Shown here one piece after another: positions 9,071 through 64,000 of a stretch of DNA of 64,000 nucleotides. Origin of the DNA: Dictyostelium discoideum. Its lineage: Eukaryota. The notes beneath the pieces were generated by a model. It ran no database searches. It was not told where the DNA came from and saw nothing but the letters and a program-made list of their open reading frames with translations. The position numbers and the translations under genes are program-made. Each line of letters starts with the position of its first letter. Position 1 is the first letter of the stretch. The DNA lies in the NCBI GenBank assembly GCA_000004695.1, contig CM000152.2, positions 2,560,001-2,624,000 of the forward strand, in the 5' to 3' direction.

Positions 9071-10624
<1,554 letters not shown>

Positions 10625-11083
10625 TTTAAAATAATTAATTTTTTTTTTTTTTTTTTTTGTTTTTTTTTATATAAAATTTATTATACAAATAAAATTATAA
10701 AACAAAATTGTGATTTTGAAAAAAAAAAAAAAAAAGAATAAATTTATTAGATTTATACCCTTTTTTTTTTTTAAACAAAATTTTTTAAATATAAAAAAAA
10801 AAAATAAAAAAAAATAATTATTTTTAAAAAAAAAATAATAATTAAAATTAAAATAAATAAAATTTATATAAAAATGATAATAAATTATGATAATAAAAAA
10901 AAAATAAAAAAAACCTATATAAAACCCACCCCTAACTTAACACACCCGCTGTGTTTTCATAAATAGAAAAAATTTAAAGAATAAAAAAAACAATTGGTGA
11001 TTATTTTAATAAATTCTATTGGATCATCAAACATTTCTTTTGATTTTTCATATTATTTTATGACGTTTTTTAATAATTGTATC

Positions 11084-11120
<37 letters not shown>

Positions 11121-11536
11121 TTTTTTTTTTTTTGTGGTTAATTAATAGCTTTTTTTTTTTTTTAGGAATGATAAAAAGAAAAAAATAAATTAAAAAAAAA
11201 TTAAAAAAAAATTAATTGAATAAAAAGGGCCCTTTATTTTTAAAAACAAAAAAAACAATTTTTGACTTTTAAAATTTGAAAAAACAACCCTTCCTTTTTT
11301 TTTTTTTAATAAAAAAAATAAATTTTTTTAATTTTTTAAAAACCCCAAAAGGTTTTTTTATTACAAGGGGGGGATAATAATTTTTTAAAAAAAAATTTAG
11401 GTTAAAAATTTAGGAAAAAAAATAATTTTTTGAAAAATTATTTTTTTTAAGATATCCATTTTAAATTTCCAGAATTTTAAAAGATTCAATCCATTACCCA
11501 CAACAATATGATATCATTATTGTGTGGAATCTTCAT

Positions 11537-11571
<35 letters not shown>

Positions 11572-12022
11572 CCTTTGAACATGTAAATTAATTTTTCCAA
11601 ATCTGGGAAAAAAAAAAAAAAAAAGATTTTTTTTAACATCGAAAAAGAAAAAAAAAACCCAAAAAAGAAATCTTTGAATTAAAAAAAAAAATAAAATAAT
11701 TCAAAATAAAAAAAAAAAATAACAATTTTTTTTTTTTTTTCTTTTTTTTTTTTTTTTTAAAAAAACGAGCCGTCTTTTTTTTTTTTTTTTTTTTTTTTTT
11801 CTTTTTTCGTTTTTTTTAAATATAAAAAGGTTTATTATCAATTTTATTTTTTGGATTTATTTTATATACTAAATTTGTAAAAAAAATAAAATAAAATAAA
11901 AAAATAAAATAAAAAATAAAAATAAATCTTACCTTTTTTTTTCATTCAAAAACCACCGCACTTAAATTAACCATAAAATATTAAAATTATTTAAAACCAA
12001 TTATTAATAAATAACCAATACA

Positions 12023-15000
12023 ATGACAAAAACCAAAAAAACCACACCAAAACCAACAACACCAACAGCAACAAAGGTAGCAGATACATTAAAGAGTAAA
12101 AAAGGAGTACCATCCACAGTTAAAACTTCATCAATTGCAAATCATAAACAAGTTGGTGTATTAAATAATAAAGAAAGAAAACAACAATTAAAGAAATTAA
12201 AATTACAATCAAATTTATCAAATCAATCAACCAATGTTTATAATAATTCCAATAGTAATTTATCACATGAAAATATTTTAAAATCAGTTATTGATTCTTA
12301 TATTTTACCATTAACAACATCAACATCAACCACCACCACCACCAAGAATAATTCAGCAACACCATCTTCATCATTTTTAGATATTAAAACTTATTTACCA
12401 AATGTAATTGTATTATTACATCAAGGTAAATGTTTAAAGAAATGTTTAGATTCAAATAATAAATCAGCTGAAAGTATTAAATTACGTGAAAGATGGATGG
12501 AACTTTTAGGATTCTTATTAAAACCAAATAATAATAATCTTTGGGTTGGTGTTCATTTACTTTGTGAAACTGTACGTGTTTGTGATTATGAAATTATGAT
12601 TAACAAATTAGAACATTGGATAACAATTTTAACAACATTAATTGAAAATCAAAAAAAAGTTTTAACTTTAAAGAACCAACAACAAAATCAACAAAGTCAA
12701 CAACAAATACCAAATACAATTTCATTTAAAGAATATGGATCAATTATAATATTATTATCATTATTAGTTGAAAAAGCAACAAAATGGAATGACTTAAAGA
12801 GAACAATTACAAATAATACAGTTATGTCACCAATTGTATCATTGATTTTATTATCATTAGATCAACAATATGGTTATCCAGATGAATGTAAAATAGATTC
12901 ATTAGTTGCAATCACATCATTGATTCAATCGGCTACTACTGCTTTAAAACCATACCTTTTCAAAATTGAACAATTGGCTTATCCATTACTCTACAGTTCA
13001 AATAAATCAATTCAAGAGAGTACTTCAACATTAATTGCCAATCTTTCACAATGTGTTGGTATTAATACAACCGATTTATATTGGGATATTTCTGTTCAAA
13101 AGATTTTAGTTGAAATGAATACAATTGTTGATAAAGTTTTTAATATATTTGAAGATCAAGATCAAACTAATAGTAATAATAAATCAAATGTAGTTGATAC
13201 TACTACTAATAATAATACTACAACTACATCAACTTCATCAACTGGTAGAACTATTAATTTACCAAATAATAGTAAATTATTAAATGTTGGTGATGATCAA
13301 GTTATTAGTATGTTAAAAAATTTATCATCTGTTAAATTCCCTGATACTCCAAAAGATGTTCATGCACAGACTTCATTTTATATTAAAGCTTTATTTGGAC
13401 TTTCAAATTGTCTCTTACGTATTTTATCAACAAGTTCATCAACACCTTCACCTGTACCAATTGATGAAATTATTAAATTAATTTGTAGAATTTTAAATCC
13501 AAATTTAAATCATCTTGCTTTTTCAAATTTAAATTTAGTATGTATCTTTTTTTTAAAAAAAAAAAAAAAAAATATAAATATATATAAAATATTAATATAA
13601 TTACTTTTTTATTATTTTTTTTATTATTTTATTAAATAGTCATTTTCAATTTCAGAAATGATATTTTTAATTCAACAATTTCATCAACAAGCATTTCAAT
13701 TATTATCAGGTATTTTAAAAATTTTTAGAAAATCATTATTAGTTCATAGTAAAACCATTTCATCATTATTATTAAGACCATTGAAATCATTAAATTATTC
13801 ATTAATGAGTCCAACAATTCATTCACAAATTTATAAAACCATTACAGATGCAGTTGAATCATTTGGTGCATCAAGTTCTGATTCATTGGCAATCCAAGTT
13901 TTACCAATATTATTAAAAGATATTTTACCATATATTCCAGAAGGTGGTAATAGCAACAATTCAATGTCAACAACTCAAAATACAACTTTATTAAATTCTT
14001 CAAAATTAACAATTTCTCAAACTATTAATAATGTTGATCCAACTTTAAATGATTTTGATTCTTTATCAATTAAAGAAGATGCTTTATCAGCTTTATCAAG
14101 TATACTTTTACATTGTGGTTCATATCTTCAACAACAACAACAAAATAATAATAATAATAATAGTAATTCATTTGGTACAGACAGTAATAATAATAACGGT
14201 CCAAAAGTTAAACAAATTTGTAGATTAGAAATTGATCAATTATTAGTATCATTATTATTAGAATGTCAATCATTATCAAGTGTTAAAAAGAATTCAACCA
14301 CTTATTTAAATAGTAGTTATAATTGTTGGAGATATAGATCAAAATTATATGAATGTTTAATTCATTGTGTTTTAAAACCAGTTTCAAATATACCACCAGT
14401 TTTACCATACTCAATTCGTATATTTACAAATGGTATGAGTAATGATCATAATCCAAATGTTAGAAGCATTTGTTGTAAAGGTGTTTCAATTTGTGAATCA
14501 ATCATTCATCCACAATGTCCATCATTAACTACTACTGCAACTACCACTACTTCAGTCACTTTTAATCAAAATCCTTCATCAGTTTATAAGAATTTATTAA
14601 ATTCAAATACAAATGCAATTATGGGTCAAGAAGATGACGATTTTGAAGAATCAAGTGATTTTGATGAAAATTTAAATGATCAAGAAGATGAAGATGAAGA
14701 TGATGATTTAGAAAATGAAATTGATGATAAAATTCAATTAGAAGATGATGATTTAGAAGTTGAAGAAGTTGAAGAAGAGGAAGAAGAAGTTGAAGAAGAA
14801 GAAGAAGTTGAAAAAGTTGAAGAAGAAGAAAAAGAAAAAACTATTGTTCATACAACTACAACTATTACTACTTCACAAAATAATAATATTGTAATGAAAA
14901 CATCTTTATTCAATACCTCAACACTTCAAAAACAAGCTACTGTTGCTCCAAAAGTTTCTAAAATCGAACCAAAGAAACCATTAATCGCCGATAATAATGA

Positions 15001-15055
15001 TGTTTCAATTGATGATGGTGATGATGATTTAGATTTACCAGATATTGAAGATTAA
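12023..15055 (+). CDS. Large nuclear-type protein with a basic N-terminus, helical (HEAT/ARM-like) body and a strongly acidic E/D-rich C-terminal tail, possibly RIX1/PELP1-like. Exons 12023-13537 and 13640-15055.
   Basis: Two same-frame ORFs joined by donor TTA|GTATGT at 13538 and acceptor aaatag| at 13639 (102-nt intron). The acidic tail reads DDDFEESSDFDENLNDQEDEDEDDD..EVEEVEEEEEE. The family assignment is a guess. Confidence 0.55.
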
Positions 15056-15485
15056 TATCTTTTTTTTTAAAATTAAAAAAAGAAATAAAAAAAAAAAATA
15101 AAAAAAAAAAAATAAAAAAATTAAAAAAAATAAAAAAAAAATAAAAATAAACATAAATTTAGAAAATTAAAAAAAAATTAATATCAAATACCAAATGGTT
15201 TTTGATTTAAAATAAATAGTTTTATTGTAAATATATCTTTTTTTTTTTTTTTTTTTGTTTTAAAAAATAAATAATTATTTGATTGTTAAAATAAATAGGT
15301 TTTTTTTTTTTTTTTTTACTTTTTTAATAATAGTGATAGTAATGATTTTGATTATTTGCATATCTGTTTAATAATAATTATTATAGATATTAGTATTATT
15401 TTTATTTTATTTATTTATTTATTTTATTTTTTTTATTTTTTTTTTAAAAAAAATTACATACAAATTAGAATAATATTTTTAAGAA

Positions 15486-15797
15486 TTAATCATATTTTTT
15501 ATATAAATTTTTTCTACTTGTAAAATATTTATGAAATAAATGTTTATTATCTTCATTTATAAATAAATTATGAAAAACAAACTTTCCTTCATTAGAGTTT
15601 GAAACTAAATTATTATATGTATCATTTCTACACGAAGTTGGTAATAATGGTGATAAAGGTGGTGATGAAGTTTCTGATGAAAACGATGGTGATGATGGTG
15701 GTGTATTATTATTTACAAATATAAAATTATTTGGAAATTCAAAATAATTTATATCATTATTATTTTTATTATTATTAATTATATTATTAATATCCAT
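15486..15797 (-). CDS. Small hypothetical P/S/N-rich protein (103 aa)
   Basis: Intact ATG-to-stop ORF in an otherwise ORF-free region. No homology recognised. Confidence 0.25.
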   Translation of the reverse strand: MDINNIINNNKNNNDINYFEFPNNFIFVNNNTPPSSPSFSSETSSPPLSPLLPTSCRNDTYNNLVSNSNEGKFVFHNLFINEDNKHLFHKYFTSRKNLYKKYD

Positions 15798-18700
15798 TTT
15801 TTATTTAATTATTTTTTTTTTTAAAGTGTTAATTTATAAAATTATATTTAAAATAAATGATAAATCTTAATGAGTTTAAATAATTGGTTTTTTTTTATTT
15901 TTTTTATTATAATTTTTTATTTTTTTTTTTATATTTTGAAAATAAAAAAAAAAATGTATATGTATAATTATATTAATATATACTTTTAGTTTTTAAAAAG
16001 GTAAATGGATAAATCATCGCATCAATTGTTGCAACATCATTTTATTAAACTTTGGAGTGAATAAAATAAATGTTAAATTTTTTTACATCAGTTTACAAAT
16101 ACAAAAATGGAAAAAAATACTCACTATTGCACACATTCGTTCACCCCACTAACTAATTCGAGTTTTTTTTTTTTTTTTTTTTATAACACTTTTTTTTTAT
16201 TTTTTTTATTTTTTTCAATATTTATTGATATTAGGGTATACAAATATGTGGGTAAAATTTAAAAAATAACAATAAATTAAGCAGTTTTTTCATTGGTAAA
16301 AATAATAGTAGAGTATCTATACTTATTTCTATTAACTATTAATAACGTTTTTAAATCTTAATACTTTGACTTTAATTAATTCAAATGATATTAATCTAAT
16401 TTTTATAAAAAAGGAATAAAAATAATAAAAAAAATTATTATAATTTTTATTATTGTTAATATTACCATTATCACCCACTTTTATCTTTTTTAGTATTTTT
16501 TTTTTTTTTTTATTTTTTTTTTTATCACCCATTTTTTATCACTGCTAAAAATAAAATCCAATATAGGAAAAAACCAACTTAATGAGAACAATCCTATCAT
16601 CATTAATGATTATTTTTATTTTTAGAAAATAAGAATATACATATTATCATTTCTAATTAGGAATTGCTAATCTATTTTTAAAAAAAAAAATCATCATTAC
16701 ACAGGATTAAAAAAAAAAAAACAAACAATACAAAACTTTAAAAATCACACATGTGCAATTCAAATAAAAGAGACTTTTAATAAATAAAAAATATCATCAT
16801 TACACAGGATTAAAAAAAAAATAAAAAATAAAAATATTAGTTAATATTTTATTTATATATAAATATATACTTTTTTTTAAAAAAAAATAAAATAATGGTT
16901 GTTTTTTATATTTTTATTTTACTGCTATATTAATAAAACTTTTTTTTCCTTTTAGCATTTTTCTAAAATCTTTATAATAAAAATAGATTATTCATCACTT
17001 TTCAAATAAAAAAAAAAATAAAAATAAAAAATAAAAAAAAATAAAAATATTATTATAAATTATATTTTCTATTATTACTATAATTAACACTCCTTTATCT
17101 TTTTGGTGTTTGTCATTTAAATTGTTTTTTTTTTTTCTATTTTAATCTAAAAAACCAAATTTTTTTGTTTTTTATTTGGAAAATAAAAATTGGTTACCAT
17201 TTTGTGTGTTTCTTGTTTTATCTATTTTATAATTTATTAAATAAAAAAAAAAGTCAAATCCTATTAAGTTGAACTAATAATTATAATAATAATAATAATA
17301 ATTTTATAAATGTGTTACATGTTGTCAATGAAATGGTAGTGAATGGGAAAAAGAAAAAAAGTTTAGGGTGGTATGTTTCCTTGGAAAATATTTAAAAAAT
17401 CATTTTATTATTTAATTTTTTTTATTTTATTTTTTATTTTATTTTTAATTTTTCAGACCCACCATCATCAATGATTAATGTTTATTTTTAGGAAAATTGT
17501 CACCCAAACTCATCTTAATAGGAAATGCCGAGCAATCCTCCTTTCATTTTTTATTTTTTTTTTTTATTTTTTTTTATTTTTATTTTTATTTTTTTTTTTT
17601 AACAATTATTCAACAAAATTGTGTAAGGATTTAAAAAATTAAATAAAAATTTGCTCAAGTATTTTTTTTTTTTTTTTAAAATAATTGAAATGAGCCATTG
17701 TTTTATTTTTAAATATCATTCCATTAAATTGATTGAAAAAAAAAAAAAAAAAAAAATTAAAAAAAAAAAAAAAAAAAAAAATTAAAAAAAAAAAAAAAAA
17801 AACCAAAAATAAAAAACTAAAAATATTTTTGTGACCAATAATCAGTTTTGATCAAACACATCTATTATACAATCACCCCTCATTATCACCCATCTTTTTA
17901 GAACATCTCACTTTTTTATTTTTTTTTATTTTTTTTATTTTTTTTTCTTTCATAAAAATTGTTAAAAATATTAGCTTTTTTTCCTTTTGAAAAAAAAAAA
18001 AAAAAAAAGAAACCAAAAAAAAAAAAAAACAAAATTTGTAGTAATATTAAAAAAATAAAAAAATAAAAAAATAAAAAAATAAAAAAATAAAAAAAAAACA
18101 CCCACAAAAATAATATTTGCAAATTATAATTTTAAATAAATAAAAAGTCATTAGACAATACCATAAAAAAAAAAAAAACAAACATCAACAACCAATAAAA
18201 GGAGATATTAGAATTTAAAAAGGCGATTGATTTATATAGGGAATTTTTTTTAACATTAAAAAAATAAATTAATAAATAAAATAATAAAATAAATATACAA
18301 TAGGTAAATATCGGATATTAATTATTAAATATCATCACCATCACCATCAATCATTATCATCACCAATTTAAGAGTTCAAAAAAAACAACTCGTCCATATA
18401 TCTAAATTATAATAATTAATTTTTATTTTTTCCTTTTTTAATAATCCAATTTAATTATTTTTTAAATTTATAATAATAAATAAAAAAAATTAAAAATTCA
18501 AAAAAATAAAAAAAATAAAAAAAAAATTATAAAAAAAAAAAAGCTCATCATTAATTGTTTATTTTTGAATAGTAAGATTATAAATTTATATTAATTCATT
18601 ATATATATATATATTTGATTTTAATACCACCCATTATTTAATTTTATTTTTTTTTTAATTTTATTTTTTAATTTTTTTTTTTTTAAAATTTTTTTTTTTT

Positions 18701-49747: not shown

Positions 49748-53314
<3,567 letters not shown>

Positions 53315-53813: not shown

Positions 53814-56800
53814 ATGGGATCCCAAAAGATTTTCTTGATTTTGTTTACAATTTTATTGTGTTTGAGAACTATAAAATCTATTTCAGTTGAAGAATGTAAT
53901 TATTTTTTTTTTTAATATTTAAAAAAAAAAAGGAGTTATAAATATTAATATTATGTTTAGCAAATTGTATTAGTTTTTTAGCCAACCAACTTGGAATAAA
54001 TTTTTTTACCTCAATAAATTCTTCAAGCCAAATTCAATATTGTTATTATACATCTTATATTACATGTGACTCTAATGAGAGTATAACTGAATTAAATCTA
54101 TCTCAAAATTCATCTTCTAATATAATAGGTTCAGACCTATTTTTATGTTTTCCAAATTTAAATTCATTGTTTGTATTTATTTTTTATTTTTAATTTTATT
54201 TTTATTTTTTATTTTTATTTTTATTTTTTATTTTTATTTTTTTTTTATTTTTGCTTTTTTTTATTTTTTTTTTTTATCTTTTATCAATTTATTAATTTTG
54301 TGTTTTCAAATAGATATCTTAAAAAAGTAATACTCAATAGTGATATTTTATATACATTACCTTCAACTGTAAAGAAATTACATTTGGAAAGATGCACTGG
54401 TTTAACCAATGTAACTCAAAAATTACCGCCATATGATTATTTGTATGTATTGTTGAAAAAATAAAAAAAAAAAAAAGAAAAAGTGTTTTTTTTTACTAAT
54501 TATTTAAATATTAGAGAGATAATTACCTTTTCATCAGATACTTTCATATTTTATATGTCATGGATTCAAAATATTAAAGAGTTTTATTTTTATAATGTTG
54601 AATTTCCATATACTTTAAATACAACTTTTGTTACAGATTTTGAAAATATTGAAAATTATACCAGACTAGATTACATGGGCTTCTCAACAAATGAAATACC
54701 TGATCTTACTGGTTTTTCATGTGGTGTGTAAGTAAACAAATTATTTAATAAATAAAAATAATAATAGTTTGTTATTGATAAAAATAATAATAATAATAAA
54801 AATAAAAATATAGTGATATGCTTTTAGGTTTTGCTTTTAAAAGTTCATTTGAAAAATTATTAACATTTAGTGGTGTTAAAGATATGATGATTTGGTACTA
54901 TACAAGACCAATAGATATACCAACACAATTATTACAATTAAGTGGAATGCAAAATTTGTAAGTTGTAACTATATTTTCTAAAATTTAACAATAATAATTT
55001 AAAATTTTACTGATTCTTTTTAATGATAAAGGCAAATTAATATAAATTTTAAAGTACCATCTTATCAATATGATTTCTCAAATTTAACATCATTATCAAT
55101 GCTTCAACTTATGGATAAATCAACCAATACAAATAACTTGGGAAGAAATGGTTTACCAATTTCAAAATTACCACCAAATTTAAAAGAATTTTATTATGCA
55201 GGAATTTTAAAGAAATCACCATCAATGGAAATTTTTAAAGATGTTAAAATTGTTGATTTCTCATTATGTGAAATAAATGATACATTAAAAGATGTTTTCT
55301 TACCAACAACTTATTCAACAAATAATTTGTAACTATTTTCATTCATTAAATTATTTTTTACTTTTATTTTTTTTTAAACAGTTACTAATAGTTGTTTTTA
55401 TTTTTATATATATTATATTAATAGATATTTTGAAAACAATAAATTATATGGTTTAATTCCTCAATCATACTGTAATGTAATTACAGATTTTAGCGATAAT
55501 ACTTTAACTGGTGAAATTCCAAAGTAATTATTTTCTTTTTTATAAAAAATATTAGAATTAATTTATATATAGAAAAAAAAAAAAAAAAAAACTAACAATT
55601 TTTTAAAATAATTATAGTTGTTTCACGTGTTATTTTAATGATACTGATTCTTTAGTGAAAAATAAATTTGCAAATAATAAATTCACAAATTATGCGACCC
55701 AAGGTCCTTGTAGTATGTATTTTTAAAATATAATAATTTTTAAAATTTTAATTTTATATATATACTAACTATAATTTAATTTTTAGCAACAATGAAACCA
55801 AATTTATTAGTTAATGCTACAACTTTAATATTATATGGTGAATCTTTAGGTTTTAATGGTAGACTTATAAAAACAAATGCAACAGGTTCAACAACTTTTA
55901 CAATGATACAACCAAGTAGTTATTTTACATTAAATTTAAGAACAACAAATATATTTGCAAAAGGTGCAAGATCATTAATACTCACTTGGACAGTTGGTAG
56001 CGAAATTAGAAAATTCACATTACCAATTGTTAAACAAGCACCTGTACCTGCAAATATTACTTACAGTGGTATTGCATCGAATCAAGTCGAAATAAATGGT
56101 GAATTCTTTACATACAACATTACAGATGTTTCGGTTTTAGTAAGTGGTAATGATTGTCTTGTAACTTATACAACATTCAACCAAATCAAATGTACATTAA
56201 CAAAAGGTTTAAATGAAAGTATTGTATTACCAGTTGATTTTATTTTTGTTGACATTATTGTAGGTGGAAACAAAACAAGTGTTTATGTTAGATTACAAGA
56301 AACATCATATATAAACAATAAAAAGTGTAACCCTGAACTATGTACTTCCAATACATATTGTAATTTAAATGATGGAATTTGCTATCCACATTTAGATTGT
56401 ATTTCAGATTGTACAATAAACAATGCAGTTTGTAATCATGTTAGTGGGTTGTGTGATTGTAGGAATAATTGTAGTAATGCAGGTTTATGCAATGGTGTAG
56501 ATGGTACTTGTTCGTGTAATTCTGGTAGATTATTCAACGATTGCAGTGGTATTCAATGTACAGGTACACCAATTTGTTCAAATCATGGTACTTGTGATAC
56601 CTCAAACGGAAAATGTAAATGTGAATCAATTATATGGGTTGGCAATGCATGTCAAGATACTCAACATTATGTAAATGCAATTACACCATCAAATGAAAAT
56701 GGTGGTAAAGTTTTATTATTTGGTTGGTTTGGTTCAACTCATTCAAATGCATCAGTAATAATTGGCTCACAAGAATGTAATATAACTTCAATAAATCAAA

Positions 56801-58034
56801 CTGTAATAGAATGTGATATTGGTCATGGAAAAGGAATAGTACCAACATATGTTTCCCAAAATTCTTTGGAGTGGTCAAGTCAGACAATGTATAAATATTT
56901 ATCAATACAATTGAAATGTCCAAATGATTGTACAAGTAATTTAAATGGTAATTGTGATACAACTAAAGGTGTTTGTGTTTGTATTGGTAACTTTACAGGT
57001 ATTGATTGTGGTTCATATCCAACTAGTAATCCATCAGATGGAAGTGGAAGTGGACCAAAAACAAATACAACAGTGGATGATAATACTGGTAGTGGTTCAA
57101 TTAACAATGGTAATGTAGATTACCAAGTATCAATCACTTCACTATTAGAAATTGGATTTGATGGTAGCACAATTAAAGAATACAACCTAACTAAATTATG
57201 GGAAAAGCCAAGCAATATTAACAATCCAAACCCTAATATACATACTTTTACACAAACAATTGAAGGTAATTGTACAATCACTTCAACAATTGAAGAAGTT
57301 TCAAAAGATAAAGAATTTTCATTTGCTGGTATTGACTTTACAGTTTCAGGAGGTTCATTAAAATTATCAGTTCAAATTTTAAATTATCCATATAGTTCAA
57401 CATTAAATACATTACAACTAAGAATGAAATCATCAGCTTTAAATTATTCAACACCAAAATGTGGTAGTACTCAAGATGATGAAAAAGTTTCAATAGATTC
57501 AAATGGATTCACAAATGAAAATGATAATTTAAACTATTTAACAATCACAAAGAATAATAGAAAACTTTATGGTCGTTTCCTTTCAAAAATGTTATCAGAT
57601 GGTAGATCAACATTTACAACAAGTAACATCATTTCAACAACTGATGTCGATGTTACTGTTGCATTAAATTTACCACATTGCGATATCTGTTTATTAGATC
57701 CTGGTAAGTTTAATTTTTATAATTGATTTTTACATTTTTTTTTTTTTTTTTTTTTTCTTTTATTCCCTCAAATAACTGACTTTTTTTTTTTTTCATTTCC
57801 AAATCAGATTTTTCAATTCTTTTAAATTCAAATGTAAAAGATAATGAAGAAACATGTGAAGATGAAACTAAAGATACAAAAATATCAACCACAACAATTA
57901 TTGCGATCTGTGTATCAGTGGGGGGTGCTGCAATTATAGGTGCTGCTGGTTATCTTTTGTATAGAAAAAAAATTGTTGAAGTTTTACCATCTTCAATGTC
58001 AAATTCAAAATTAAGAAAACTAAATGCAAAATAG
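53814..58034 (+). CDS. Type I membrane receptor-like protein, paralog A: signal peptide, plant-type LRRs, IPT/TIG-like beta domains, a Cys-rich EGF-like cluster, a TM helix and a short cytoplasmic tail. Ten exons: 53814-53895, 53961-54168, 54314-54442, 54515-54727, 54814-54957, 55032-55328, 55425-55523, 55618-55712, 55787-57703, 57808-58034.
   Basis: Exon 1 MGSQKIFLILFTILLCLRTIKS. LRR text LYGLIPQSYCNVITDFSDNTLTGEIP and LPISKLPPNLKEFYY. Large exon with CNPELCTSNTYCNLNDGICYPHLDC..CSNAGLCNGVDGTCSC..CSNHGTCDTSNGKCKC. TM AICVSVGGAAIIGAAGYLLY. Every exon phase matches paralog B. Confidence 0.75.
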
Positions 58035-58419
58035 TAACTCAATGTATTAATAATTTAATAAACTTTATAAAAATAAAAAATTAAAAATTTGTTAAGGGTT
58101 TTTAAATGATTCTTTTTTTTTTTTTTTTGTTTGGTGATATGTTTTTTTTTATTCTAAAAAAAAAAAAAAGTTGCAAGATATTTTTTTATTTTTCCTGAAA
58201 AGTTGAAAGATTTTTTTTTTTTTTTTTTTTTTTTTTGATAAAAATTGATGAATTTTTAGATCATCTTTTTATAAAAATATCCATTTTTCTAAGTCTCGAA
58301 AAAAAAAGTTTGTAATTATGTAAATGTTGATTGCATTCTTTGATTTTTTTATTTTTTTTTTTTATTTTTTAAATATTAAGTTTTTTAATATTAAATTAAC
58401 CTATTCATTTATTTATTTT

Positions 58420-58432
58420 TTTATTTAAATAT

Positions 58433-58483
<51 letters not shown>

Positions 58484-58494
58484 TATTAATTGAA

Positions 58495-58545
<51 letters not shown>
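58420..58545. repeat. (TATT)n/(ATTT)n repeat followed by an A45 homopolymer abutting the ATG of receptor paralog B
   Basis: The repeat atttatttatttattt.. spans 58420-58490. An A-run spans 58501-58544, immediately 5' of the start codon. Confidence 0.8.
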
Positions 58546-58548
<3 letters not shown>

Positions 58549-59487
58549 AAATTTTCAAAGATTTTCTCTATTTTCATTTTAATTCTTTTATGCATTGGTA
58601 CTTTAAAATCAATTTCCATAGATGAATGTAAGTAAATAATTTTTATTTTTTTATTATAATTTTTAAAAAAAAAACTAATTATTTATTATAATATAGATAA
58701 TTGTTTGGGTTTAGTTCTAACCCAATTTGGAATGAATAATTTTATTCCAAATAGGGTCAATGCTACTGGACAAATCGAATATTGTCTTCCTTTTAACATA
58801 ATTACCTGTGACACAAATGAAAGTGTAATAGGTTTGAATTTATTTCAATTTCTTACATATGGCGTTATAAGTGCAAGTTCTTTCACATGCTTTCCAAATT
58901 TAAAATCATTGTAATTTTTTTTTTTTTATATATTTTTTTTTTATTTTTTATTTCTTATTAATTTCCATTTTTTTTTTCAGATCACTTCAACAAACAATAC
59001 TTAGTCCAGATTTTTTTTATACTCTACCTTCAACATTAAAAAGTTTAGATTTAGATGGTTGTTCTGGTGCTACAAAAATAACATCAAAACTTCCTCCATT
59101 TGACTATTTGTGTGTATAAAAAAAAATATATATATACATAAAAAAAAATCCAATTTTTTACTAATCTTAATACTATTATTTTATTTTGTTTTAATTTGTT
59201 TTATTTTATTATATTTAGCAAAGTTATTTCTATTTCTTCAGATACATTCACTGTTTATTTATCATGGATTCAAAATATTAAATATTTTCATTTTTCAAAT
59301 TATGATTCCAATTATCCAACTATGAATTCAACATATATAACAGATAATGAAAACATTGAAAACTATACAACAATTGAAATTTTTAAATTTTCAACCAATT
59401 TAATACCGGATATTACTGACTTCTCATTTTCATTGGTGTATGAAAAAATAATATTATATTATAAACTATTATTAATATTATTATTAA

Positions 59488-59585
<98 letters not shown>

Positions 59586-62500
59586 TTATTATTTATAGTG
59601 AAATGGTTTTAGGAAATTCTTTTCAAAGTTCATCATTAAATAATTTAACAACCTTTTCAAATGTTATTGATTTTAAGATTTGGTATTATACAAAACCTAT
59701 AGATATACCAATACAATTACTACAATTAAGTAGATTACAAAATTTGTAAGTTGTTTAGGAAAAAATAAAAAAATAAAAAAAATAATATAATTTTACTTTA
59801 CTAATAAAAAAAAAAATAATAAAAATAAAAAAAGACAAATTAATATAAATTTTAAAGTACCATCTTATCAATATGATTTCTCAAATTTAACATCATTATC
59901 AATACTTCAACTTATGGATGAATCATCAAATAATAATAACCTTGGAAGAAATGGTTTCCCAATTTCAAAATTACCACCAAACTTAAATGAATTTTATTAT
60001 GGAGGAATTTTAAAGAAATTGCCATCAATGGAAATTTTTAAAGATATTAAAATTGTTGATTTCTCATTTGGCCAAATCAATGATACATTAAAAGATGTTT
60101 TCTTACCAACAACATATGGAATTAATTATTTGTAATTATTATTTACTTATTTATTATTTATAATTTATCCTAATCATAAATTATTAATTATTATTTTTTC
60201 TTTTCTATAATATAGTTATTTTCAAAGTAATACATTATATGGTACAATACCTCAATCTTATTGTAATTTTATAACGGATTTTAGTACAAATACTTTAACT
60301 GGTGAAATTCCAAAGTAATTGTTTTTAAAAATTTAAAAAAAAAAAAAAAAAAAAAACAATATTAATATTTATTCAAACTTTTCCTTATTCTTCATTTTAT
60401 ATTTTAGTTGTTTTACCTGTTATTTTGGTGATTCTGAAATTGGTTTAAAAAATTTATTTGCAAATAATAAATTCACAAATTATGATACCCAAAACCTATG
60501 TAGTATGTTTTTTTATTAAATTAAACTTGTCTAATTTTTAACAATTATTAATTATGTATTTAATTTTTAGCGTCAATGAAACCAAATTTATTAGTTAATG
60601 CTACAACTTTAATATTATATGGTGAATCTTTAGGTTTTAATGGTAAACTTATAAAAACAAATGCAACAGGTTCGACAACTTTTACAATGATTCAACCAAG
60701 TAGTTATTTTACATTAAATTTAAGAACAACAAATATATTTGCAAAAGGTGCAAGATCATTAATACTCACTTGGACAGTTGGTAGCGAAATTAGAAAATTC
60801 ACATTACCAATTGTTAAACAAGCACCTGTACCTGCAAATATTACTTACAGTGGTATTGCATCAAATCAAGTTGAAATAAATGGTGAATTCTTTACATATA
60901 ATATTCAAGATGTTTTAGTTTTAGTTAGTGGTATTGATTGTCTTGTCACTTCAACAACATTCAACCAAATCAAATGTAAATTAACAAAAGGTTTAAATGA
61001 AAGTATTGTATTACCAGTTGATTTTATTTTTGTTGACATTATTGCAGGTGGAAACAAAACAAGTGTTTATGTTAGATTACAAGAAACATCATATATAAAC
61101 AATAAAAAGTGTAACCCTGAACTATGTACTTCCAATACATATTGTAATTTAAATGATGGAATTTGTTATCCATATTTAGATTGCTTTTCAGATTGTACAA
61201 TAAACAATGCATTTTGTAATCATGGTAATGGTTTGTGTGATTGTAGAAATAATTGTAGTAATGCAGGTTTATGCAATGGTGTAGATGGTACTTGTTCGTG
61301 TAATCCCGATAGATTATTCAACGATTGCAGTGGTATTCAATGTCCAGGTACACCAATTTGTTCAAATCATGGTACTTGTGATACCTCAAATGGAAAATGT
61401 AAATGTGAATCAATTAAATGGGTTGGCAATGCATGTCAAGATACTCAACATTATGTAAATGCAATTACACCATCAAATGAAAATGGTGGTAAAGTTTTAT
61501 TATTTGGTTGGTTTGGTTCAACTCATTCAAATGCATCAGTAATAATTGGCTCACAAGAATGTAATATAACTTCAATAAATCAAACTGTAATAGAATGTGA
61601 TATTGGTCATGGAAAAGGAATAGTACCATCATATGTATATCAAAATTCTTTGGAATGGTCAAGTCAGACAATGTATAAATATTTATCAACACAATTAAAA
61701 TGTCCAAATGATTGTACAAGTAATTTAAATGGTAATTGTGATACAACAAAAGGAGTTTGTGTTTGTATTGGTAACTTTACAGGTATTGATTGTGGTTCAT
61801 ATCCAACTAGTAATCCATCAGATGGAAGTGGAAGTGGACCAAAAACAAATACAACAGTGGATGATAATACTGGTAGTGGTTCAATTAACAATGGTAATGT
61901 AGATTACCAAGTATCAATCACTTCACTATTAGAAATTGGATTTGATGGTAGCACAATTAAAGAATACAACCTAACTAAATTATGGGAAAAGCCAAGCAAT
62001 ATTAACAATCCAAACCCTAATATTCATACTTTTACACAAACAATTGAAGGTAATTGTACAATCACTTCAACAATTGAAGAAGTTTCAAAAGATAAAAAAT
62101 TTTCATTTGCTGGTATTGATTTTACAGTTTCAGGAGGTTCATTAAAATTATCAGTTCAAATTTTAAATTATCCATATAGTTCAACATTAAATACATTACA
62201 ACTAAGAATGAAATCATCAGCTTTAAATTATTCAACACCAAAATGTGGTAGTACTCAAGATGATGAAAAAGTTTCAATAGATTCAAATGGATTCACAAAT
62301 GAAAATGATAATTTAAACTATTTAACAATCACAAAGAATAATAGAAAACTTTATGGTCGTTTCCTTTCAAAAATGTTATCAGATGGTAGATCAACATTTA
62401 CAACAAGTAACATCATTTCGACAACTGATGTCGATGTTACTGTTGCATTAAATTTACCACATTGCGATATCTGTTTATTAGATCCTGGTAAGTTTAATTT

Positions 62501-62792
62501 TAATAATTGATTTTTATTCCCTCAAATAACTGACTTTTTTTTTTTATTTTTCATTTCCAAATCAGATTTTTCAATTCTTTTAAATTCAAATGTAAAAGAT
62601 AATGAAGAAACATGTGAAGATGAAACTAAAGATACAAAAATATCAACCACAACAATTATTGCGATCTGTGTATCAGTGGGGGGTGCTGCAATTATAGGTG
62701 CTGCTGGTTATCTTTTGTATAGAAAAAAGTTTGTTGAAGTTTTACCATCCTCAAAGTCAAATTCAAAATTAAAAAAACTAAATGTGAAATAA
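58545..62792 (+). CDS. Type I membrane receptor-like protein, paralog B (tandem duplicate of 53814-58034). Ten exons: 58545-58626, 58696-58909, 58981-59109, 59219-59437, 59599-59745, 59835-60131, 60216-60314, 60408-60502, 60571-62487, 62566-62792.
   Basis: Same architecture and exon phases as paralog A. Exon 1 MKFSKIFSIFILILLCIGTLKS. Exons 6-10 are ~96-97% identical to paralog A, while exons 1-5 are only ~50-60% identical. Intron 4 is an (ATT)n repeat. Confidence 0.75.
59467..59590. repeat. (ATT)n microsatellite forming intron 4 of receptor paralog B
   Basis: tta x ~40 between donor GT at 59438 and the acceptor at 59598. The raw ORF reads poly-L. Confidence 0.8.
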
Positions 62793-63084: not shown

Positions 63085-63130
63085 CGCCGCGATAGTATAG
63101 TGGTATTACTTCAGATTGGGAACCTTTGAC
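63085..63130 (+). pseudogene. Truncated tRNA-His-like copy (5' half only), inverted relative to the intact gene
   Basis: GCCGCGATAGTATAGTGGTATTACTTCAGATTGGGAACC matches the 5' acceptor/D-arm of tRNA-His (2 mismatches). It then diverges with no T-arm or B box. Together with ~17 nt of 5' flank (aaaaatatcacaaat) it mirrors the real gene. Confidence 0.5.
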
Positions 63131-63228
63131 CATAATTAAGAATTCTTTTATAGATCAAAAAAAAAATTTAGATTTAACATGCAAAGCAATATTATTATAA
63201 CTTTTTTAATTCAGGTGTGTACCCGTGA

Positions 63229-63250: not shown

Positions 63251-63273
63251 CAAGAGGTCAAATTTTTAAAAAG

Positions 63274-63344
63274 TGCCGCGACCTGGAATCGAACCAGGGT
63301 CAACAGAGCCACAATCTGATGTACTACCACTATACTATCACGGC
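63274..63344 (-). tRNA. tRNA-His (anticodon GUG)
   Basis: The minus strand reads GCCGTGATAGTATAGTGGTAGTACATCAGATTGTGGCTCTGTTGACCCTGGTTCGATTCCAGGTCGCGGCA, with anticodon loop TTGTGGC, B box GGTTCGATTCC and A box TAGTATAGTGG. It is close to the canonical eukaryotic tRNA-His sequence. Confidence 0.85.
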
Positions 63345-63703
63345 AATTTGTGATATTTTTCATTTTAAATTGCTCTTCCCCATTTTCTTAATTAAAAAGA
63401 TTAAACGGCCATGGTGTGTCGGTTTGTAAATATTTAAAAAGATCAGATTTTAATTTCATCAAATTTATTATAATAAATGAGATTTATCTCAAGAAGCTAA
63501 TAATTGCATTATTCCTTTCAAAAGAAAATCGGGTTTTAATTTTTAAAATTGTTTAAAGTGAAAAAAACATCTTAATAATCTGAAAGGTGAAAGAAATAAA
63601 AGGAATTTAAAAAATAAAAGTTATTAAAGTTATGGTTATTTGTTGGAAAAAAAAATGAAAAAACTTAATCGCAAATATTTTATTATATATTAATTTAATA
63701 TCT

Positions 63704-64000
63704 TAAGTAAGCAGCGCCTGAGCTTGAGCCTGAACCTGAACCTGAACCTGAACCGGTACCAGTCATTTGACCAGTAACGGATGGACCGCTGGTGACGGTG
63801 AAGTTAGCGTAGACAGAGTTAAAGGTGACACTGTGTTTGGCACCACAACTACCTTCACAGATCATTAATTGAACTTGGTAAACACCAGCTGGGAATTGTT
63901 CATCTTCAGATGGGGTGGCGGCGAATGAAAAACTAGTTGAGTATTGACCTGGTTGAGTGTTGACAATTAATTGAGCATCACCAAAACCATTTGAACCAGT
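63704..64000 (-). CDS. 3' end of a gene continuing beyond the window. It encodes ..QFPAGVYQVQLMICEGSCGAKHSVTFNSVYANFTVTSGPSVTGQMTGTGSGSGSGSGSSSGAAYLRY*.
   Basis: The frame is open from the window edge to TAA at 63704-63706. Codon usage is conspicuously GC3-rich (ggt, acc, gtc, ggc) against the AT background, typical of highly expressed Dictyostelium genes. Contains a (GS)n linker. Confidence 0.5.

Follow-up and report, generated by a model that had tools for sequence, protein, structure and literature searches.

A 64,000-nt window of the Dictyostelium discoideum AX4 genome (GenBank assembly GCA_000004695.1, contig CM000152.2, positions 2,560,001 to 2,624,000 of the forward strand) harbors two adjacent receptor-like genes of the ComC family, here called A and B, whose 3' parts are nearly identical while their 5' parts are strongly diverged. 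The pair is very probably an old tandem duplicate whose 3' parts have been homogenized again and again, in separate lineages, by interlocus gene conversion. The conversion acts at the level of DNA, as both synonymous sites and introns are affected, and it halts at two places that recur across lineages: the end of exon 5 and the junction of intron 8 with exon 9. A first-pass annotation of this DNA had named recent gene conversion among several possible causes of the step in identity between the copies; the comparison of seven genomes supports that cause and reveals the conversion to be recurrent and lineage-specific.

Gene models of the tandem pair

Genes A and B lie head to tail on the + strand. 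Splice models built from the sequence give ten exons to each (Table 1), with the same splice phases (1,2,2,2,2,2,2,1,1) and near-identical exon lengths, so that the gene structure first described for the pair is borne out both by the models and by database proteins. The translation of gene A is identical to KAM9949516 (P0014), and that of gene B is identical to XP_641511.1 (P0012; DDB_G0279859; UniProt Q54W81). The ten-exon structure recurs in 13 further genes from seven other assemblies. The coordinates originally given for gene A and for the end of gene B were correct; the start of gene B, placed at 58545, is at 58546. The window is very AT-rich (GC content 15-29%), and no further ComC copy was found in it besides A and B.

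The sole exact match of gene A in the protein collection searched comes from the newer ACTFIT assembly, and gene B has the AX4 RefSeq/UniProt entry given above. The AX4 reference annotation may hold another model for gene A, or none. A literature search found no paper that names DDB_G0279859, nor, in the collection searched, one on comC, lagC or lagD.

Table 1. Coordinates of the tandem ComC-family genes and of the features discussed, as positions in the window. Exon lengths are given as A/B; identity is nucleotide identity of A versus B; exons are those of the sequence-built splice models.
Feature	Gene A	Gene B	Strand	Remarks
Gene A, predicted ComC-family type I membrane protein	53814-58034		+	1136 aa, 10 exons
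Gene B, DDB_G0279859 (AX4)		58546-62792	+	1141 aa, 10 exons, architecture as gene A
Exon 1	53814-53895	58546-58627	+	82/82 nt, 68% identity
Exon 2	53961-54168	58697-58910	+	208/214 nt, 71% identity
Exon 3	54314-54442	58981-59109	+	129/129 nt, 71% identity
Exon 4	54515-54727	59219-59437	+	213/219 nt, 75% identity
Exon 5	54814-54957	59599-59745	+	144/147 nt, 79% identity
Exon 6	55032-55328	59835-60131	+	297/297 nt, 91% identity (90.9%)
Exon 7	55425-55523	60216-60314	+	99/99 nt, 82% identity
Exon 8	55618-55712	60408-60502	+	95/95 nt, 82% identity
Exon 9	55787-57703	60571-62487	+	1917/1917 nt, 97.5% identity
Exon 10	57808-58034	62566-62792	+	227/227 nt, 96.5% identity
5' block, never converted	53814-54887	58546-59676	+	exon 1 to most of exon 5
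Intermediate block	54888-55773	59677-60557	+	exon 5 end, exons 6-8 and their introns; ~86% identity in coding sequence
Homogenized 3' block	55774-58034	60558-62792	+	last 13 nt of intron 8, exon 9, intron 9, exon 10
N-I-T sequon of A	56116-56124	60900-60908	+	N-I-Q in B
A-to-B conversion tract in AX4 gene B		minimal 61967-62057; maximal 61641-62728	+	at least 91 nt, at most ~1.1 kb
Second short A-type patch in AX4 gene B		61274-61285	+	A residues 657-661, EGF region

Three levels of identity between A and B

The identity of the AX4 pair changes along the genes in three levels rather than two. Between the start codon and the exon 5 end, identity is 56.7% over all alignment columns and 68.7% over ungapped columns, which agrees with the strong divergence of exons 1-5 that had already been noticed. 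From exon 6 to the stop codon the values are 90.7% and 93.9%, short of the 96-97% with introns included that had been claimed for this stretch. Introns 1-8, including introns 5-8, are identical only at the level of shuffled sequence, and 97.4% identity (ungapped columns) is attained only from about position 55774 in A and 60558 in B, 13 nt before exon 9, to the stop codon. Intron 9 is identical at 73 of 74 positions where it can be aligned. The similarity does not extend past the stop codon, the next 300 nt being 62% identical, which is the baseline. In the coding sequence (CDS), the rates of difference across the three blocks are 33.9%, 13.7% and 2.5%.

This mosaic is far beyond chance. Maximum chi-square analysis places the first breakpoint at A-CDS position 708 (chi-square 491), inside the last ~70 nt of exon 5 (~54888 in A, 59677 in B), and the second at A-CDS position 1271 (chi-square 122), the exon 8/9 junction, with the similar stretch starting 13 nt earlier in intron 8. 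Neither value was reached in any of 2000 permutations, for which the maximum at the first breakpoint was ~20, and a uniform identity profile was not seen. The sharp step described by the first-pass annotation therefore stands, but its main part lies at exon 9, and the breakpoint expected in intron 5 fell near the first of the two and missed the second. Within exon 9, 18 of the 21 nonsynonymous differences cluster at residues 535-796 (beta-sandwich 2, EGF repeats and TIG), in line with the reported concentration of differences in the TIG/EGF ectodomain.

Simple-sequence arrays occur in and around the pair. A (TAT)42 microsatellite at 59467-59593 takes up most of intron 4 in gene B and is missing from intron 4 of gene A, the intron being 161 nt long in B and 86 nt in A. 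Upstream of gene A there is a (TAA)43 array (53002-53130), and 51 consecutive A residues stand before the ATG of gene B (58496-58546).

Recurrent homogenization across genomes

The A-then-B pair is present at the syntenic locus in seven genomes representing four species-level lineages: AX4, D. discoideum FIR and FIW, D. cf. discoideum FIY and FIZ, D. dimigraforme and D. firmibasis. The order of genes is an LSM gene, a gene of ~1200 aa, A, B, a 252-aa gene and a LigB gene. Trees were built from 15 genes, and synonymous divergence (dS) was calculated by the Nei-Gojobori method with Jukes-Cantor correction. For exons 1-5, dS between the paralogs of one genome is 0.71-1.13 (0.81 in AX4), ortholog dS to D. 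firmibasis is 0.74-0.77, and the tree separates all A genes from all B genes with a bootstrap value of 100. Since the paralogs are at least as divergent as the orthologs and the A and B genes form separate groups, the duplication predates these species. For exons 9-10, dS between the paralogs of one genome is only 0.02-0.11 (0.065 in AX4), whereas the ortholog values reach 0.45-0.48 with D. dimigraforme and 0.63-0.64 with D. firmibasis. In the corresponding tree the paralogs pair by genome, with bootstrap values of 100 for D. firmibasis and D. dimigraforme, and the FIZ, FIY and AX4 paralogs likewise pair within their genome.

The region between the two breakpoints carries a further layer. In AX4, paralog dS is 0.18 in exon 6 and 0.52 in exons 7-8. 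Exon 6 dS is 0.14-0.22 throughout the D. discoideum complex, where the A and B versions of this exon form sister clades apart from the other species, which indicates that exon 6 is an older conversion layer. In D. firmibasis the tract extends from exon 6 to the stop codon; the identity of introns 6-9 is 0.87-0.97, and the intermediate block, introns 6-8 included, is 87-99% identical. The first breakpoint lies at A-CDS 708-774 in seven of seven genomes and the second at A-CDS 1261-1271 in six of seven, the observed chi-square being reached by none of 500 permutations in any genome. The events behind these shared boundaries are at least partly independent across lineages. Between strains, dS is 0.13-0.14 in exons 9-10 compared to ~0.05 in exons 1-5, as expected if conversion keeps shuttling paralog differences between the copies. 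GC content at third codon positions (GC3) is no higher in the converted block, so a signature of GC-biased conversion is missing; this is neutral evidence.

D. citrinum has only an A-type gene at the syntenic locus (L005:10001-15136). In strain FIV, a decayed exon 9 relic of ~130 nt, from the TIG-coding part, lies ~200 nt downstream of the gene (L008:14949-15078). The cytoplasmic tail of the single gene differs by strain, being B-like in FIU and A-like in FIV. A fusion of an A head with a B tail by unequal crossover was considered as a possible origin of this gene; its markers are mixed. Together with the FIV relic, the mixed markers make it seem that the B gene of D. citrinum was lost by decay or deletion.

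A conversion tract specific to AX4

Conversion is still active within D. discoideum, for gene B of AX4 recently received sequence from gene A. Within the ComC_SSD-coding region lies an island of ~90 nt (A residues 888-918; 57183-57273 in A and 61967-62057 in B) with a B-specific sequence common to the B genes of FIR, FIW, FIY, FIZ and D. dimigraforme and 27-38% divergent from the A genes. In this island, AX4 gene B differs by 1% from AX4 gene A and by 28-33% from every other B gene. At ~30 diagnostic sites AX4 gene B has the A state throughout, whereas the B genes of FIR, FIW, FIY and FIZ, and D. dimigraforme B at many of the sites, have the B state. B-type markers flank the tract at A-CDS 2337 and 3348. 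The island had escaped conversion since before the D. dimigraforme split and was erased in AX4 and in D. firmibasis.

A second, short patch covers diagnostic sites 1971-1982. AX4 gene B is again in the A state there, and the B genes of FIR, FIW, FIY and FIZ are in the B state, FIZ at five of the six sites. The flanking sites 1925 and 2002 are B-type in AX4 gene B.

Selection on the leucine-rich repeat head

At nonsynonymous sites the leucine-rich repeat (LRR) head evolves at roughly double the rate of the remaining protein, under purifying selection. Among orthologs, the ratio of nonsynonymous to synonymous divergence (dN/dS) of the head is 0.27-0.37 in six of eight pairs, with a range of 0.14-0.45 when the AX4-FIR B pair is excluded and of 0.14-0.59 otherwise, and that of the remainder of the protein is 0.10-0.19 in most pairs. 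Between A and B of AX4, dN/dS is 0.42 in exons 1-5, 0.44 in exon 6, 0.36 in exons 7-8 and 0.24 in exons 9-10. Since no region reaches a dN/dS of 1, positive selection acting across the LRR head as a whole was rejected.

Protein architecture and membership in the ComC family

The architecture of LRR, TIG, EGF and transmembrane segments first proposed for the pair is supported by Pfam matches and hydropathy. In both proteins the predicted order is a signal peptide, the LRR head, beta-sandwiches, EGF repeats, one TIG domain, the ComC_SSD 'supersandwich', one transmembrane helix and a tail of ~23 residues. The Pfam models for ComC proteins are LRR_ComC (PF24141), Beta-sand_ComC (PF24142 and PF24143) and ComC_SSD (PF22933). 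LRR_ComC matches A with 81.1 bits and B with 86.5 bits (gathering cut-off 27), and the membrane-near ComC_SSD matches over profile positions 2-222 of 222 with 190.3 bits in A and 188.3 bits in B (cut-off 24). Beta-sand_ComC_2nd (PF24143) scores 32.3 bits in A and 35.3 bits in B (cut-off 27). The first Beta-sand_ComC model (PF24142) has no match in A or B at E <= 0.1, and residues 423-512 fill its place; the model is present in the paralogs P0008 and P0009. A single TIG-family match per protein, at 24-29 bits (29 in A), is above the cut-off in both, and EGF_2 is above its cut-off of 22.1 in B (23.4 bits) and just below it in A (20.2 bits). Strongly hydrophobic windows occur only at residues 2-8 and at residues 1087-1095 of A or 1092-1100 of B, and hydropathy places the transmembrane helix of A at residues 1087-1113.

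Exons 1-8 encode the LRR head and exons 9-10 encode everything from the first beta-sandwich through the tail, so the main breakpoint coincides with the boundary between head and stalk. With respect to the three blocks of Table 1, the 5' block encodes the signal peptide and the LRR head up to its C-terminal third, the intermediate block encodes that third, and the 3' block encodes the beta-sandwiches, EGF repeats, TIG domain, ComC_SSD, transmembrane helix and tail. The proteins contain 25 (A) and 21 (B) N-glycosylation sequons. The loss in B of one sequon of A, N-I-T to N-I-Q, was confirmed, and the T/Q difference (sites 1603-1604) distinguishes A from B in five of five genomes of the D. discoideum complex.

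Judged by domain content, A and B are members of the ComC family and not Tgr proteins. They share LRR_ComC, Beta-sand_ComC_2nd, ComC_SSD, EGF, TIG, a signal peptide and a single transmembrane helix with the family, and they are only ~30% identical to the other members found (P0008 and P0009). The comC gene is the 'communication mutant C' gene of Dictyostelium, and Kibler et al. reportedly placed it in 2003 in a cell-adhesion and communication pathway with lagC and lagD. It encodes an EGF-domain protein with a signal peptide and a transmembrane helix and is restricted to group 4 dictyostelids (PMC4931340). By analogy with the role proposed for comC, A and B may function in cell-surface recognition or signalling. 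A search of PDB sequences found no relative. An AlphaFold2 model from an 18-sequence alignment was too poor (mean pLDDT, the predicted local distance difference test score, 44; pTM, the predicted template modelling score, 0.29) and was left unused.

Origin of the mosaic

The data make the following history very probable. A ComC-family receptor gene was duplicated before D. discoideum parted from D. dimigraforme and D. firmibasis. Afterwards, non-reciprocal copying between A and B homogenized the 3' part repeatedly, with exons 1-5 evolving independently. Exon 9, which spans 1.9 kb without an intron, would be the preferred substrate owing to its long uninterrupted homology. Toward the 5' end, the short exons (82-297 nt), the fast-evolving, AT-rich and indel-rich introns, and a divergence above 30% would now block heteroduplex formation, so that the 5' boundary would maintain itself. 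Selection for two different LRR heads, which would offer two ligand specificities on a common stalk, membrane segment and tail, probably set up the 5' boundary or reinforces it.

Several points weigh against this history. The two causes proposed for the boundary, mechanical and selective, are inseparable on present data. Repeated unequal crossing-over and conversion are formally indistinguishable here, and copy number does change at the locus, as the single copy of D. citrinum demonstrates. With a genomic GC content of ~20%, the dS estimates are rough, and those for exons 1-5 approach saturation. The number of D. discoideum strains compared is three.

It is conceivable, though we regard it as somewhat doubtful, that conversion is real and its 5' limit purely mechanical, imposed by divergence and by repetitive AT-rich introns; the two heads could then be redundant. 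The boundaries lie at introns or the ends of exons, introns 1-8 of A and B align no better than shuffled sequence and differ greatly in length, as the microsatellite-bearing intron 4 does, and the second ComC cluster described below has a similar profile with a divergent 5' part and a similar 3' part. However, both heads are intact and under purifying selection in seven genomes (dN/dS ~0.3), the tract of D. firmibasis crossed three introns yet went no further than the exon 5 end, and the B-specific island outlasted the D. dimigraforme split inside otherwise converted sequence.

A further possibility is that the boundaries are adaptive, with distinct heads kept apart by selection and the region from stalk to tail kept identical by conversion, for a shared partner or for mutual pairing of the two proteins. 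This is an unlikely reading. If it were true, the island at residues 888-918 of ComC_SSD would be a functional determinant, and its erasure in AX4 would mean that a B-specific function has been lost in the laboratory strain.

A single recent structural event in the D. discoideum lineage, such as a partial re-duplication or unequal crossover that replaced the 3' two thirds of one gene, would produce a sharp step in one genome, and the copy number of the locus does vary, with one gene and a 130-nt relic in D. citrinum. Re-duplication of this kind had been one of the first explanations offered. It is very improbable, because seven genomes carry the mosaic, the pair is older than the divergence of D. 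firmibasis, and the 3' parts of A and B cluster within their own genome in all lineages, including D. firmibasis, D. dimigraforme, FIZ, FIY and AX4. Tract ages also differ (dS 0.18 in exon 6 and 0.065 in exons 9-10), as do tract extents, that of D. firmibasis beginning at exon 6, and AX4 has a short internal tract with unconverted markers on both sides.

It is more improbable still that no conversion occurred, and that purifying selection on the 3' part and diversifying selection on the LRR head generated the step through constraint on the protein. Diversifying pressure had been suggested as one possible cause, and the faster nonsynonymous evolution of the LRR head among orthologs agrees with it. 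However, the step is present in introns and at synonymous sites, where dS falls about 12-fold (0.81 to 0.065), and thus it is not a protein-level effect; constraint on the synonymous sites of exon 9 is ruled out by an ortholog dS of 0.45-0.64 in the same 3' region. The grouping of paralogs by genome and a dN/dS that nowhere exceeds 1, even in the head, also oppose it. Finally, although tandem repeats of 97% identity are a classic source of misassembly, collapse or chimerism of the copies deserves almost no credence, given that the window and an independent D. discoideum assembly (L009) agree over 11.4 kb that include both genes, with 0 mismatches and 2 indels, and that seven other assemblies keep the two-gene structure, each with its own copy-specific differences.

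Comparison with known systems

Partial concerted evolution of tandem duplicates is known from the human G-gamma and A-gamma globin genes, the red and green opsin genes, and RHD and RHCE. In such systems ectopic conversion maintains near-identity over one segment, including its introns and silent sites, and the flanks diverge, the tract edges often being located at simple-sequence or intronic discontinuities. The ComC pair differs from these cases in that it belongs to a social amoeba with ~20% GC, the converted module comprises receptor stalk, transmembrane segment and tail while the spared part is an LRR head of ligand-binding type, and boundaries are reused across lineages separated by dS of ~0.5-0.6. 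The mechanism is a textbook one, and neither a new kind of system nor a new mechanism is involved; this particular case appears to be unreported. It offers, from a social amoeba, a natural and well-resolved instance of such partly concerted evolution, with dated layers, reused boundaries and one tract within a species.

The first-pass annotation had likened the pair to Dictyostelium cell-cell recognition receptors. The likeness to the allorecognition receptors TgrB1 and TgrC1 holds in so far as both are type I surface glycoproteins with IPT/TIG folds, here accompanied by EGF modules, and are encoded in tandem gene clusters; the Pfam assignment is ComC rather than Tgr. A and B carry an LRR head and ComC_SSD with one weak TIG match instead of several IPT/TIG domains, and no Tgr protein was found among their homologs. 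In the three D. discoideum strains compared, A and B also lack the extreme polymorphism between strains that marks Tgr proteins. AX4 and FIR/FIW proteins are 93-97% identical in exons 1-5, 6 and 9-10 and 97-98.5% identical in exons 7-8, with a nonsynonymous divergence (dN) of 0.01-0.03. Work on the tgrB paralogs has proposed interlocus gene conversion or recombination among them (bioRxiv 10.1101/2025.10.22.684067). The ComC pair extends active interlocus conversion in Dictyostelium receptor clusters beyond the tgr locus.

There are practical consequences for the use of these genes. Because the 3' parts are homogenized, phylogenies and orthology calls based on full-length ComC-family sequences mislead, and only exons 1-5 track orthology. 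In addition, DDB_G0279859 of AX4 differs from the genes of wild strains by a converted block of ~12 residues in ComC_SSD.

Other loci and neighboring features

A second ComC cluster in D. cf. discoideum contains three genes (L010:2333-8108, 10001-13695 and 14415-18359). The last two are 90% identical over their first ~2450 nt and 97.3% identical over their last ~1500 nt; their proteins are 70-90% identical in the head and ~100% identical from residue ~540 on. This is a milder form of the profile seen between A and B. A diverged head joined to a homogenized stalk may be a trait of the ComC family.

Downstream of gene B, the window contains an intact tRNA-His(GUG) gene on the minus strand (63273-63344). 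A 47-nt fragment on the + strand (63086-63132), ~85% identical to the 5' part of tRNA-His, lies ~140 nt away in head-to-head orientation and may be the relic of a duplicated or disrupted tRNA gene. The last part of the window (63700-64000, minus strand) holds the 3' end of a gene that encodes 252-254 aa in other assemblies, with a C-terminal repeat rich in Gly, Ser and Ala; this gene is kept downstream of the pair in all genomes examined.

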